Of a stretch of DNA of 64,000 nt, positions 24,699 to 32,041 are shown piece after piece. The position numbers and the translations under genes are program-made. Location: positions 4,762 to 68,761 of the forward strand of contig CAZYGG010000012.1 of the NCBI GenBank assembly GCA_964647585.1, given 5' to 3'. Source of the stretch: an uncultured Desulfobacterales bacterium. GTDB lineage: Bacteria > Desulfobacterota > Desulfobacteria > Desulfobacterales > CAJINA01. Below the pieces are notes generated by a model. It saw only the letters and a list, made by a program, of their open reading frames with translations, was not told where the DNA came from and made no database searches. Every line of letters starts with the position of its first letter. The stretch's first letter is position 1.

Positions 24699-27281
24699 TT
24701 GGACACTCCCGCGCCAGGAAAACCGATAGGAAGGGATATCCCCATGCAGCACGGCGATTCTGAAAAACCGGGTCCCGGGCAACCAGCCGGGGGCCTGGGA
24801 ACCTTTGGCGGTGTTTTCACTCCCAGCGCCCTGACCATTCTCGGCATCATCCTGTTTTTGAGACTCGGCTATGTGGTCGGCAACGCTGGATTGTTCAAAT
24901 CCCTGATTATCATCGGGATTGCGAATCTCATCTCCGTGCTCACCAGCATTTCCCTCGCGGCCATTGCCACCAATCTTAAAGTTAAAGGCGGCGGCGACTA
25001 CTACTTGATTTCCAGGACTCTCGGACTCGAATTCGGAGGCGCCATTGGCCTGGTCCTCTTTCTCGCCCAATCGGTTTCCATCGCCTTTTACTGCATCGGC
25101 TTCGGTGAAGCCCTCCACAGCATGTTGTCAAACCCGCTGCTTTCTCCGCGCATCATCGCCGCAATCGCAGTGGCGGCCCTGTTTCTACTGGCCTGGATCG
25201 GGGCAGATCTGGCCACCAAGTTCCAGTATGTCGTCATGGTGCTGCTGATCGCCGCACTCGCCTCGTTTTACACCGGCAGCATCATCAAATGGAATCCGGA
25301 AACCTTCGCCCAGAGCTGGGCGGCATCCGAAACCGGGCCCGGGTTCTGGGTCCTTTTTGCTATTTTTTTTCCCGCAGTCACCGGCTTCACCCAGGGGGTC
25401 AGCATGTCCGGCGACCTGAAAGACCCGGGCAAGAGTCTGCCCCTGGGAACTTTCCTGGCCGTGGGCATTTCAATTGTGGTCTACTTTAGCGTCGCCCTGC
25501 TGTTTGCCGGTACTTTGCCGAACCAGGTCCTGGCCGGGGATTACGGCGCCATGCGTAAGGCGGCATTTTTCGGCCCCCTGATCGATGCCGGCGTTATCGC
25601 GGCCACCCTCTCTTCGGCCATGGCCTCTTTTCTCGGGGCACCCAGAATATTGCAGTCTTTGTCGGGCGACAAGATATTCCCCCTGCTGAACCCGTTTGCC
25701 AAAGGGGTCGGCAACGCCAACAATCCGCGTCGGGGGGTACTGCTCTCGGCCGTCATCGCCTTTGCAACCATCGCAGTCGGCAACCTGAACCTCATCGCGC
25801 CGATTGTTTCCATGTTTTTCCTGATATCCTACGGCCTGCTGAACTACGCCACCTGGTTCGAAGCCCGGGCCGCCAGCCCCTCTTTTCGCCCCCGCTTCAG
25901 GTGGTTTGACTACCGGCTCAGCCTCGCAGGCGGCCTGGCCTGCCTCGGTGCCATGCTGGCCATCGATCTGAAAACCGGCCTCATCGCCGTCTCCCTGCTG
26001 TTTGCCATTTTCCAATACCTGAAAAGGACTTCCGGCCCGTCTCGCTGGGCGGATGGCCGCCGATCCTACAATATACACCAGGCCCTTGAAAACCTGAAAA
26101 AAGCGGCCACAGAACCCGAGCACGACCGGGACTGGCGCCCGCATATCCTGGCATTCTCCGACAACACCGAGCGCCGGGCCAAGCTGCTGCAATTTGCCGC
26201 CTGGGTTGAAGGCGACAGCGGCTCGACTACGGCTGTTCAGATTATCGCCGGCCAGGGAGCCCGGAAACTGAAACAATATCAGGAGACAACGGCTGAACTG
26301 AAAAAGGAACTCAAGGCTGCCGGATCAAACGCCTTTCCCCTGGTCATCCTGACGCCTGATTTCGAACCCGGCATTTCAGCCCTGGTGCAGTCCTTTGGAA
26401 TTGGCCCCCTCAAGGCCAATACCATGCTGCTGAACTGGTTCCACCGCACACCGGATACAGTTGAGGATATCCGGGCGGTGCGCTTTACCAGAAACCTGCA
26501 GGCCACGTTTCGACTAGGAAAAAATATCATTATCCTGGATCCTAAAAGCGACCCCATGGAGGTTCCACCCAAAGAAAGACGCATCGATATCTGGTGGTGG
26601 GATGATGCCACCGGACGTTTGATGCTGCTGCTCGCCTACCTGATGACCCGCAGCCCGGAGTGGGACCGATCCAACATCCGGGTATTGGCCGCCGGGTACG
26701 ATCAGGCCTCCGGTAAAGATATCGCTGACCTGAACGCCACTCTGGAAGAGGCCCGTATCGAAGCCGCCACCGAAGTGGTGATCAACGCGGGCCCGGAGTC
26801 GATTGGAGCCTATTCGGACGACGCAACCCTGGTTTTCCTGCCTTTTCGGTTCAGCCAGCATACGGTCGCCGGTCCTTTTGGCAATCCCTGCGGAGAGTTG
26901 TTGTCACACCTGCCAACCACGGCACTGGTCATGGCGGCCGAGGACATTGACCTCGATGCCGAACCCGAAGAGGGTCCGCCCGGCGAAATGGCCGCCGCCA
27001 TGGACAACCTGGAAAAGGCCCGCAAGAATTTGGAAACAGCTGAAAAAACTGCGGAAAAATCCCGGCAGCGGATGGAAACGGTAAAACAGGAACTGGAAAC
27101 CCTTCAAGCCCGGCAGCCGGATCCTGAAAAGATGAAAAAAGCGGAAAAGGAACTCCTGGAAGCTGAAAAGCAGGTAGAAAAAACCTCCCGCAAAGCGGTT
27201 AAGGCCGCAGTTAAGGCCGATGATGCCGAAAAAGATGCCGAAGATCAAGGCCTTGAAGTGGAAAAGGATGAAGAGAAGTGA
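24699..27281 (+). CDS. Cation-chloride cotransporter (SLC12/CCC family) with cytoplasmic domain and coiled-coil tail
   Basis: GTFGGVFTPS, GGGDYYLISRTLG, FFPAVTGFTQGVSMSGDLKDP, NWRP-like DWRPHIL and IDIWWW are SLC12 motifs. Confidence 0.88.
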   Translation: MDTPAPGKPIGRDIPMQHGDSEKPGPGQPAGGLGTFGGVFTPSALTILGIILFLRLGYVVGNAGLFKSLIIIGIANLISVLTSISLAAIATNLKVKGGGDYYLISRTLGLEFGGAIGLVLFLAQSVSIAFYCIGFGEALHSMLSNPLLSPRIIAAIAVAALFLLAWIGADLATKFQYVVMVLLIAALASFYTGSIIKWNPETFAQSWAASETGPGFWVLFAIFFPAVTGFTQGVSMSGDLKDPGKSLPLGTFLAVGISIVVYFSVALLFAGTLPNQVLAGDYGAMRKAAFFGPLIDAGVIAATLSSAMASFLGAPRILQSLSGDKIFPLLNPFAKGVGNANNPRRGVLLSAVIAFATIAVGNLNLIAPIVSMFFLISYGLLNYATWFEARAASPSFRPRFRWFDYRLSLAGGLACLGAMLAIDLKTGLIAVSLLFAIFQYLKRTSGPSRWADGRRSYNIHQALENLKKAATEPEHDRDWRPHILAFSDNTERRAKLLQFAAWVEGDSGSTTAVQIIAGQGARKLKQYQETTAELKKELKAAGSNAFPLVILTPDFEPGISALVQSFGIGPLKANTMLLNWFHRTPDTVEDIRAVRFTRNLQATFRLGKNIIILDPKSDPMEVPPKERRIDIWWWDDATGRLMLLLAYLMTRSPEWDRSNIRVLAAGYDQASGKDIADLNATLEEARIEAATEVVINAGPESIGAYSDDATLVFLPFRFSQHTVAGPFGNPCGELLSHLPTTALVMAAEDIDLDAEPEEGPPGEMAAAMDNLEKARKNLETAEKTAEKSRQRMETVKQELETLQARQPDPEKMKKAEKELLEAEKQVEKTSRKAVKAAVKADDAEKDAEDQGLEVEKDEEK

Positions 27282-27489: not shown

Positions 27490-27840
27490 TTATCCCAGGC
27501 TCTTATCAAACAGCCCCCGGTCGCGAAACTCCTGGGCCTTGGCATCGTTCCACTGGCCCACCGGCCGCAGGTACCCCACCACCCGGCTGTAAACCTCACA
27601 GTCCTGGAAGTTGCGCAACAGGCTGTCCTTTTGAAAGCAGGCTTCGCATTTCAGGAAAAATCGGTCTTTTTCCGGCTCGTAGATACTGCCGCCGGTAATA
27701 TGAATGCCATCTTCCATGGGCAAGGCGGTAACGGTGACACCACAGCCGCAATCGTGGCATTTACCCGGCCATGAAAGGGCATTCTTTTCAGGGTTTTCAT
27801 CAAAAAGGTCGTGCAGACGCTCCACGGTCATCATCGTCAT
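27490..27840 (-). CDS. Stand-alone class III ribonucleotide reductase (NrdD) C-terminal glycyl-radical domain
   Basis: CHDC and CEAC, then CEVYSRVVGYLRPVGQWNDAKAQEFRDR matching the NrdD RxxGY loop; GGAG-type RBS. Confidence 0.8.
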   Translation of the reverse strand: MTMMTVERLHDLFDENPEKNALSWPGKCHDCGCGVTVTALPMEDGIHITGGSIYEPEKDRFFLKCEACFQKDSLLRNFQDCEVYSRVVGYLRPVGQWNDAKAQEFRDRGLFDKSLG

Positions 27841-27999
27841 TGGTCATCTCCTTATCAGGGTGGATCAGCAACGTCATCAAAGATTCAAACAAAGTAGATT
27901 AAAAGGATAACGCTATACATATTGTATGTCAATACCCTTTCGAATACTACATATAGTTATTACGGATACATATTCAGATCATGGCAGTCGGATTATTCG

Positions 28000-28066
28000 G
28001 GATCGAAATCGATATCGGAATCGAAATCGAGTACTGATTCCGATAGTGATTTCGATATGGCTGGCT
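28000..28066. repeat. Inverted ATCGAA/ATCGAT hexamer arrays
   Basis: gatcgaaatcgatatcggaatcgaaatcga...gattccgatagtgatttcgat. Confidence 0.65.
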
Positions 28067-28395
28067 TCAACAATCGATTGGTGAGATATCAGTTGCCATA
28101 TCCTTTGGATTGGTCCGTCCCACAGTAATATGCAATTCCCCCGGGTCAACCGTGTGCCGAGTTGTACATTGGGGCCATTAATGCTATGTCGGCTTATCTA
28201 CATAATGTGCCTATTCTCAAACGGTAGATTTTGGTTCAGAGCACGTGTCCGACGTAGCCATCAGGGCGAAGTCGGAAGGCGTAGTGGTTTTAAAACCGCA
28301 GGCATAGCATTGGCTATGTTGAGTTTTAAAAGAACGAAAACGCCGCTCTGGGACGAAAGATGCCGTTTGCGGATATGCACTAAGCTGGAGGCACA

Positions 28396-30508: not shown

Positions 30509-30942
30509 GTGCCCATTGCCGCCAGCGGCGTGCCAGGCGACTTCAGCGAAAAACAAATTGCATGATAGCCATATTATGGTGTAATAAATCGTTTCACATG
30601 CTATCGTAGGACTATTAAGCAATAGCGTTTGCAAGAAAAGTGTTCCGATACCGGTGGCCCGGTAATCGTATTGGAGTTATCACAAATATTGAGCCTGCTC
30701 CTCTGCAAACGCTATCAAGGGTTTCCCGTTTTGCCGCTCTCCTGGGTTACCGAGCTGGGAGCCTTCGCTGTGTCAAATTCTTTAAATCTGTCAAGCGTTT
30801 AGGTGTTTTTAATCGAATCATTTGATAGCAGTTGCCATTACCGGTCAAGATTCGTGTGTTAGCCCGTTATGCCTTTTATGGTAAAGTCGCGAGCAACCAG
30901 AACGTGTGTTTGACAACTGGTATTTACGAAAGGGGTTCAGCC

Positions 30943-32041
30943 ATGTCCGCCGAATTGAAACAAAAGATAAAAGGACTTCATCAGAAACTTGAAGATCTCC
31001 GGGGTTATCTTTGACCTGGCGGGCAAACAAAAAAGACTGGAAGAAATCGAACACCTGCTGTCCAGGGACGGTTTCTGGGACCAGCCCGAAAAATCAACTG
31101 CCATCCTGAAAGAACGGACCCGAATTTCCGCTAAAATTGATGCGTTTACTTCCCTGGCCGATGGACTGGAGGAGAGCGAACTCCTGCACGAGTTGGCCGT
31201 GGAAGAGTCGGATGACGAGAGCCTCGCCGAAGCGACCCAGCAGGTGGCCGCCATGGAAAAGGGCATCGACAAGCTCAGCCTTGAAATGATGCTTAACGGG
31301 GAGTCCGACCAGAACAATGCCATCGTTTCCATCAACGCCGGAGCCGGTGGCACCGAGGCTCAGGACTGGGCTGAAATGCTGTTTCGCATGTACCTGCGGT
31401 GGATTGAAAAAAAGGGATTCAAGCCGTCCATTCTGGATTACCAGCCCGGAGATGAGGCCGGCATTAAAGGGGTAACCATGACGGTTAGCGGTATGAACGC
31501 CTACGGGTACCTCAAATCGGAAAACGGGGTTCACCGCCTGGTGCGCATTTCCCCGTTCAATGCCAGCGGAAAACGCCATACCTCTTTCGCCTCAGTGTTT
31601 GTCTATCCCGAACTGGACCAGGAAATCGTCATCGATGTGGAAGAAAAGGACCTGCGCATAGATGTTTACCGGGCCAGTGGCGCCGGTGGGCAGCATGTCA
31701 ACAAAACGTCAAGCGCCGTGAGGATCACCCACCTGCCAAGCGGTATCGTTGTGCAATGCCAGCAGGAAAAATCCCAGCACCGCAATAAAGAGATGGCCAT
31801 GAAAGTCCTCAAGGCCAGGTTATTCCAGAACGAGAAAAAGCGGCAGGATGAAAAACTCCAGGAAATACATGACGGCAAGGACGACATCGGCTTTGGCAGC
31901 CAGATCCGTTCCTATGTCCTGCACCCTTATCAAATGGTAAAAGATCACCGTATCGGCCTGGACATCGGCAATGTGAACCAGGTGCTGGACGGCGGCATCG
32001 ACCCGTTCATCGAAGGGGTCCTGCTGGCCGGCATATCCTGA
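30943..32041 (+). CDS. prfB: Peptide chain release factor 2 with programmed +1 frameshift at CTT TGA C (31009-31015)
   Basis: MSAELKQKIK...LRGYL* followed by CTTTGAC with an upstream GGGG SD-like element; downstream frame has SPF and GGQ motifs. Confidence 0.97.

Follow-up and report, generated by a model that had tools for sequence, protein, structure and literature searches.

What is the role of a free-standing protein of 116 amino acids that resembles the glycyl-radical domain (GRD) at the C-terminal end of NrdD, the class III RNR, when its gene has no NrdD gene beside it? The question is raised by a short gene in the 64-kb stretch of DNA that was analysed here ("the window" below). The original prediction for this gene was that it encodes a 116 amino acid protein with two CxxC pairs and a radical motif, that no nrdD or nrdG lies nearby, and that the protein is either a spare part for NrdD or the small half of a naturally split NrdD. 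The descriptive part of this is borne out as follows: the CxxC pairs are C28-H-D-C31 and C65-E-A-C68, the radical motif is YSRVVGY, profile searches of the 64-kb window detect neither nrdD nor nrdG, and in the whole 4.15-Mb genome the NRDD profile PF13597 has two matches, namely the small ORF and the sole full-length nrdD, which is on contig C24. The choice between spare part and split half depends on the NrdD proteins of this and other genomes, and is taken up after the gene and its product have been described.

The small gene and its product

The 116-codon ORF at 27490..27840 on the minus strand of the window encodes the protein MTMMTVERLH...CEVYSRVVGYLRPVGQWNDAKAQEFRDRGLFDKSLG (116 aa), and its features are the following:

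27490..27840, minus strand: coding sequence of the stand-alone NrdD-type glycyl-radical domain protein (ORF listing, Pfam NRDD match to the C-terminus only, conserved family, AF2 model with a pLDDT of 87.5).
27748..27759, minus strand: first Zn knuckle, C28-H-D-C31, inside the N-terminal module that is peculiar to the family (residues 1-62); all of 101 diverse members have both C28 and C31.
27637..27648, minus strand: second Zn knuckle, C65-E-A-C68, the homologue of the second knuckle in the Zn ribbon of NrdD; conservation is complete at C65 and at least 90% at C68, and the hhalign match to the NrdD C-terminus begins here.
27547..27600, minus strand: glycyl-radical finger, C81-EVYSRVVGYLRPVGQWN-98, with the G89 codon at 27574-27576 (conservation in 37 close and 101 diverse members, and AF2).
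27848..27853, minus strand: Shine-Dalgarno sequence AAGGAG, 7 nt before the ATG (read from the sequence).

The protein has two more cysteines, C33 and C81. Its sole Pfam match is NRDD (PF13597), in which residues 58-110 align with profile positions 521-561 of 562 (E=4e-10, 39.4 bits against a cut-off of 26.2); the PFL-type Gly_radical profile PF01228 gives no match at E<=1. The NCBIfam NrdD equivalogs are matched only over their last ~35 positions and far under their cut-offs (34.6 bits vs 326 for TIGR02487), and neither PHROGs nor NCBIfam has a dedicated curated family. The small protein thus shares with NrdD a C-terminal Zn site followed by an RVxGY loop (C28, C31, C65, C68 and YSRVVGY), and at 116 aa it does not contain the ten-stranded alpha/beta barrel with the thiyl-radical cysteine on its finger loop. 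When its profile is aligned with that of the NrdD C-terminus by hhalign, homology extends over residues 63-115 only, which is to say the second knuckle, the finger and the tail (probability 99.7, E=5e-26), and there is a 9-residue insert after the CxxC relative to NrdD. Upstream of residue 63 hhalign detects no homology to NrdD, and residues 1-62 are specific to the family.

How widespread and how conserved are such proteins? A word-indexed search of a database clustered at 90% identity gave 297 small homologues at E<=1e-3, most of them unnamed or mislabelled "anaerobic ribonucleoside-triphosphate reductase", and an exhaustive profile search of 50%-identity clusters gave 308 matches at E<=1e-10, the best 150 of which are all 53-159 aa long. 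Family members range from ~90 to 140 aa. Among 37 close members 38 columns are invariant, including every position from C81 to V94; among 101 members with identities down to 29% the only invariant residues are C28, C31, C65 and G89, and C68, R86, V88, Y90, R92 and P93 are nearly so. This conserved set is the predicted Zn(Cys)4 site plus the radical motif. Because there are 297 small homologues, the best 150 clusters are all small and 38 columns are invariant, the gene is not a chance ORF. AF2 modelling with the 101 diverse sequences gave a pLDDT of 87.5 and a helix, a sheet of five strands on which both knuckles sit, a hairpin and a C-terminal helix, with G89 at the tip of the beta-hairpin between strands 84-87 and 90-93; the model built with the 37 close sequences was poor (pLDDT 62, and below 50 in the Gly loop). 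A Foldseek comparison of the whole pLDDT 87.5 model with the PDB found nothing at E<=0.001, and a PDB sequence search with the small protein returned chance matches only, such as the zinc ribbons of ribosomal S14.

The genes around the small gene are unrelated to it and encode an SLC12-type transporter, a hypothetical protein, Lnt and RF2, and no oxidative-stress genes were seen near it in the window or at the sampled family loci. The transporter gene (24699-27281, plus strand), which is convergent with the small gene, encodes an 860-aa AA_permease/SLC12-type protein with a long, Lys/Glu-rich, coiled-coil-like C-terminal tail. The RF2 gene (prfB; 30832-32041, plus strand) occupies two overlapping frames, a 60-aa ORF ending in ...LEDLRGYL and then a 350-aa PCRF/RF-1 ORF, a layout that looks like the classical programmed +1 frameshift site of prfB.

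The region upstream of the small gene contains a predicted promoter and a pair of NrdR-like boxes:

27904..27932, minus strand: sigma-70-type promoter TTGACA-17-TATCCT (consensus scan, 10/12 matches).
27912..27927, minus strand: proximal NrdR-like box ATACAATATGTATAGC, which overlaps the promoter spacer (5/6 key positions).
27944..27959, minus strand: distal NrdR-like box TAACTATATGTAGTAT, separated from the proximal box by a 16-bp linker (6/6 key positions).

The rule for such sites is two 16-bp boxes with key positions C4, A6, A8, T9, T11 and G13 that are separated by a linker of 15-16 bp (PMC13584703). Only 34 tandem NrdR-like pairs are present genome-wide. Those at the nrdD promoter and beside a class II-type RNR gene rank among the best seven; the arrangement of TTGACA plus box is common to the small-gene and nrdD promoters. 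Tandem boxes are found upstream of small-gene orthologues at 12 of 21 loci vs 1.2% of 1,054 background windows, and the genome has an nrdR gene (C10:30765-31205). These predicted boxes and the presence of nrdR place the small gene among the probable members of the NrdR regulon. Farther upstream in the same 555-nt intergenic region, beyond the NrdR boxes, a short run of TCGAT-based repeats (window 27995-28075; ...ATCGAAATCACTATCGGAATCAGTACTCGATTTCGATTCCGATATCGATTTCGATCCCGAA... on the gene strand) lies ~155-235 nt before the small-gene ATG and could be another protein-binding array.

NrdD enzymes of genomes and phages that carry the small gene

The nrdD gene on contig C24 encodes a protein of 708 aa (ending in ...CNECRQETEIYSRVVGYLRPVKQWNNGKQAEY...) that has an ATP-cone, an MCCRL thiyl loop, a CxxH...CxxC ribbon and its own EIYSRVVGYLRPVKQWNNGKQAEY loop, and it is followed by a gene for a 232-aa NrdG-type radical-SAM activase. 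The absence of nrdD and nrdG from the genome would have spoken against the original prediction, and both are present on this contig. The prediction also held that a C-terminal RxxGY in the genome's own NrdD would mean a spare part, and its absence a split enzyme; the 708-aa NrdD on C24 has YSRVVGY. A split class III RNR would have an NrdD without the radical glycine, and the NrdD here keeps EIYSRVVGYLRPV. Since NrdD retains its own YSRVVGY loop, the small protein of this genome is therefore expected to be a spare or alternative GRD and not the half of a split enzyme; the spare-part side of the prediction stands here and the split side falls, yet the latter appears to be realised in other genomes (below). 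This genome also has a PF02867 (class I/II-type) RNR.

Long NrdD proteins are encoded by all 34 of the named carrier genomes (those that have the small gene), which include Desulfobacterales, other Thermodesulfobacteriota, Syntrophales, Smithellaceae, Bacteriovoracaceae, many Patescibacteria and Methanophagales. Three candidate carrier loci (L056, L066 and L098) proved to be plain NrdD C-termini, and they were rejected and left out of the 34. Among 401 genomes of the window's order, 345 are NrdD-positive and about 58 of these (17%) are carriers; there are no carriers without NrdD in this sample. The genomes used are mostly MAGs, and the presence of nrdD and the small gene on one contig in several of them, including G182, whose NrdD is Gly-less (below), speaks against a binning artefact. 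The carriers cluster phylogenetically.

CPR bacteria have these genes in the order nrdD-small-nrdG, and the tail of the small protein in these operons is nearly identical to that of the adjacent NrdD. In one CPR bacterium a TAA immediately behind the Zn ribbon terminates NrdD, leaving it without a Gly loop, and the small gene starts 10 nt downstream; this pair is a putative natural instance of the split NrdD. Outside the Desulfobacterales (CPR, archaeal and Bacteriovoracaceae genomes) identity of the tail to the cognate NrdD is 85% vs 71%, and the cognate NrdD comes first in 12 of 13 cases. In Desulfobacterales-type genomes co-variation of the loop with the cognate NrdD is absent (66% vs 66% identity, p=0.57), and loop/tail co-variation was for this reason rejected as evidence for the window's lineage. 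NrdD genes in the order and in CPR are often interrupted by one to three intein-like inserts (G011, G014, G021, G033, G046, G092, G093, G096 and others), and the interrupted frames are 1,000-1,900 aa long and match the profile in several separate pieces.

Full-length members of the family are also present on about 20 IMG/VR contigs. Searches of 18 viral records gave no NrdD-family match other than the small gene in any of them, and nrdD is absent; these records include a 90.8-kb genome with terminal repeats and a 41-kb genome, with completeness ratings of 100% and 91%, respectively. Since these phages carry the radical domain without its enzyme, it must therefore act on the NrdD and NrdG of the host, if the domain is functional. 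One phage member sits among tail-completion, head-decoration and major-capsid genes, and phage-borne members more generally (for example L322 973-1323 and L239 6001-6363) are in structural or dense same-strand modules, not in nucleotide-metabolism modules.

Loss of the radical glycine from NrdD in carriers

If a separate protein can supply the radical, has any NrdD dispensed with its own? In 14 species of the Desulfobacterales order, which belong to five GTDB families and are all carriers, NrdD has K, P, D, E or R in place of the radical Gly, and three further carriers have a relaxed YSGVAGY loop. Among non-carriers, all 49 of the NrdD loops that could be read are canonical (YSR[VI]VGY), so Gly loss was seen in 0/49, and for the remaining non-carrier NrdDs the profile match runs over the full length. 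Two seeming exceptions with shortened matches (G401 and G394) were rejected, as both are cut by contig ends. The species-level association between carriage and Gly loss has a Fisher p of 3e-12. In a tree built from the NrdD barrel only, there were about 6 independent losses (bootstrap range 5-6, with at least 4 forced by well-supported branches), and the chance that six losses would all fall within the 17% of genomes that are carriers is 2e-5, supposing that losses are independent of carriage. Nature has in effect performed a complementation experiment here, in that the repeated loss of the radical glycine from NrdD is confined to genomes that have the small protein.

Are these Gly-less nrdD genes simply decaying? 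Their bodies (~650 codons) have pN/pS values of about 0.08-0.18 with dS up to 0.9, the same as in canonical enzymes, and the 24-codon loop has values of 0.5-1.1 vs 0.02-0.13 in canonical enzymes. Of 295 invariant columns in the body, among them those of the thiyl loop and the NxN flap, the Gly-less proteins preserve 98-100%, as against only 4-9 of the 17 invariant columns in the loop. No stops or frameshifts are present in 13 Gly-less genes, and an intact NrdG-type activase gene follows Gly-less nrdD in 13 of the 13 cases checked. By these measures the genes are not dying. The only known substrate of NrdG is the radical glycine of NrdD, and where NrdG is retained beside a Gly-less NrdD this substrate is gone, so NrdG must activate something else. 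We rejected the argument that NrdD is the sole RNR and hence must be active, as every Gly-less genome also has a PF02867 RNR; the case that Gly-less NrdD is active is therefore one of purifying selection and not of essentiality. The Gly-less and truncated NrdDs all retain their own Zn ribbon, and the minimal NrdD core would therefore end after the ribbon, with the small protein bringing a second ribbon, the finger and the tail.

Decay in the reverse direction is seen in G266 (C40:6966-7112, L337), where the N-terminal half of the small gene has been destroyed by stops and NrdD is canonical. The Gly-less genome G419 has two copies of the small gene (C10:13921-14088 and C249:4542-4688). In almost all Gly-less and relaxed loops, across lineages that are separated in the tree, the R of RVxGY has become Gly (SGV, TGV or PGV), and only G121 keeps the Arg; this change could be convergent, for example to prevent competition for the barrel by a dead cis loop, or it could be the step with which decay usually begins. 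A Syntrophales MAG (G079, L136) has a second, divergent NrdD paralogue (...GIARITQYFGRISDWNRGK) with Gln where G009 and G217 have the radical Gly (TRITGYF), in addition to a canonical NrdD and the small protein.

Proposed function and relation to known systems

The reading that we favour, with a probability of roughly 0.78, is that the small protein is an autonomous NrdD-type GRD that is charged by NrdG and supplies its radical to NrdD in trans. The mechanism that we envision is as follows: the small gene would be transcribed alongside the RNR genes under NrdR control, and its product would consist of an N-terminal module (helix, CHDC knuckle and beta-sheet), a second CxxC that completes the Zn(Cys)4 site, the G89 hairpin finger in RVVGY and a C-terminal helix. 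The NrdG-type radical-SAM activase would take a hydrogen from G89 of the free small protein, and the charged protein would dock on the NrdD barrel with its Gly finger inserted beside the thiyl-radical cysteine, replacing the mobile GRD of NrdD itself and letting the barrel reduce ribonucleotides. The NrdD GRD has been seen by cryo-EM to be a rigid mobile module that is able to leave the barrel entirely (PMC11226230). In the genome studied here the GRD of NrdD would have to be displaced or cleaved first, and the small protein would stand in as an inexpensive substitute, or as an alternative cartridge for the radical, for instance once NrdD has been cut by O2 at the glycyl radical; where relatives have a Gly-less or truncated NrdD, it would be the only radical source. 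Provision of the radical domain in trans is directly supported by the comparative data, as far as sequences can do so. The role in repair after oxygen exposure we infer, since replacement after O2 cleavage would be the most economical rationale where both radical sources exist.

What else might the small protein be? It could be a regulator, decoy or inhibitor, a GRD mimic without a working radical that titrates NrdG or plugs the NrdD barrel and that serves phages as a tool for host takeover. It does share with NrdD the motif for NrdG recognition and barrel insertion, and its predicted NrdR co-regulation and its carriage by phages without nrdD would suit a modulator too. We consider this unlikely, however, as it leaves unexplained why intact Gly-less barrels are under purifying selection, occur in carriers only and keep nrdG adjacent, and why a naturally truncated NrdD is followed by the small gene in CPR; the strict invariance of G89 and RVxGY is in addition what radical chemistry would be expected to require. 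Alternatively, NrdD might be dispensable in genomes with a class II-type RNR and its Gly loop might decay randomly, in which case the link with the small gene would reflect shared ancestry and the small protein would have nothing to do with NrdD catalysis. The PF02867 RNR in all Gly-less genomes and the phylogenetic clustering of carriers accord with this; we nevertheless find it very improbable, because the decay is limited to about 24 codons while the other ~650 remain constrained and free of stops and frameshifts in 13 genes, because nrdG is retained, and because the roughly 6 independent losses (at least 4 of them forced) all occurred in carriers, which are 17% of the NrdD-positive genomes.

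That the protein is a radical domain for some partner enzyme other than NrdD might be thought from residues 1-62, which have no detectable homology to NrdD or to a solved fold, and from the lack of linkage between the small gene and nrdD in Desulfobacterales. The Gly finger and tail are nonetheless NrdD-type and not PFL-type, co-occurrence with NrdD is 100%, in CPR operons the gene is flanked by nrdD and nrdG and the tail of its product follows that of the cognate NrdD, and NrdR boxes are found upstream of it, so that we give another partner hardly any credence. The remaining thought, that part of nrdD was once duplicated and the gene is a functionless relic of this, would fit a match limited to the last ~40 positions of the NrdD profile. 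It is at odds with a large and diverse family of intact ORFs that have a conserved length, a conserved N-terminal module and strong residue conservation, and with a predicted promoter, Shine-Dalgarno sequence and NrdR boxes of the gene's own; the conservation across the family appears effectively to refute it.

Returning to the small protein as a radical domain that works with NrdD in trans, we lean toward a broader view, held less firmly, in which class III RNR in many anaerobes and CPR bacteria would be a two-component enzyme made of an NrdD barrel and an exchangeable, NrdG-charged cartridge of ~100 aa. The cartridge would be obligatory where the Gly loop has been lost or truncated, perhaps preferred even where it is kept, and phages would bring their own. 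If the proposed function is correct, the radical site of class III RNR can reside on a separate, replaceable subunit, a cheap way of continuing dNTP synthesis after oxygen exposure is explained for strict anaerobes and for CPR bacteria with their tiny genomes, phages of anaerobes have a new class of auxiliary gene, and the annotation of hundreds of genes now called "hypothetical" or, wrongly, "anaerobic ribonucleoside-triphosphate reductase" would be corrected. The family also offers defined constructs for testing how NrdG recognizes its substrate and how a GRD enters the barrel.

Full-text literature searches found no stand-alone NrdD-type GRD, Gly-less NrdD or split class III RNR, and no class III RNR that is split or has two components is described in family-wide RNR surveys. 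According to a June 2026 review of glycyl-radical enzymes, spare-part proteins are known for formate lyases only and non-PFL spare parts are an open question, for which the present family is a concrete and widespread candidate. The comparative evidence indicates that it may be the first well-supported spare-part radical domain for a glycyl-radical enzyme other than pyruvate formate-lyase.

The closest known parallel is GrcA/YfiD of E. coli, which is charged by the activase of the glycyl-radical enzyme itself and replaces the O2-cleaved domain (PMC8683613, PMC13450708). In each case a small stand-alone protein reproduces in its C-terminal half the GRD of a large glycyl-radical enzyme and has an N-terminal part that does not derive from that enzyme, and the 116-aa protein likewise co-exists with a full enzyme and activase (NrdD and the NrdG-type activase on C24). 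They differ in that the small protein is NrdD-type and has no homology to the C-terminal Gly_radical domain of PFL, has a Zn(Cys)4 ribbon and, in place of the disordered N-terminus of GrcA, a folded beta-sheet, and has an RNR as its predicted partner, for which in some lineages it appears to be the sole radical source; the GrcA literature cited here, in which this point was not searched for specifically, mentions no PFL without its own Gly.

Among phages, the GrcA homologue Y06I of bacteriophage T4 serves host PFL. It resembles the phage members of the present family as a phage-borne stand-alone radical domain that needs a host enzyme and activase, and differs from them in that they are NrdD-type.

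Compared with the C-terminal GRD of NrdD itself (T4, T. maritima and P. copri structures), the small protein has the same second Zn knuckle, RVxGY finger and tail; unlike that domain it is free-standing and has the 9-residue insert and a unique 62-residue N-terminal module, and its first knuckle is CHDC where that of the resident NrdD is CxxH. It is thus neither a member of the GrcA family nor, having no barrel, an NrdD, and is best classified, on its predicted features, as a new NrdD-type variant of the autonomous glycyl-radical cofactor.

Division of an RNR between polypeptides has precedents in other classes. In the split class II RNR NrdJa/NrdJb the catalytic barrel and an essential C-terminal function are on separate polypeptides (PMC9669993), and in this enzyme and in class I R1/R2 alike the barrel is separated from a C-terminal or radical-generating function. 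Their cofactors and chemistry differ from those proposed here, and the parallel, which with R1/R2 is one of concept, would lie in the placement of the radical site on a subunit of its own.
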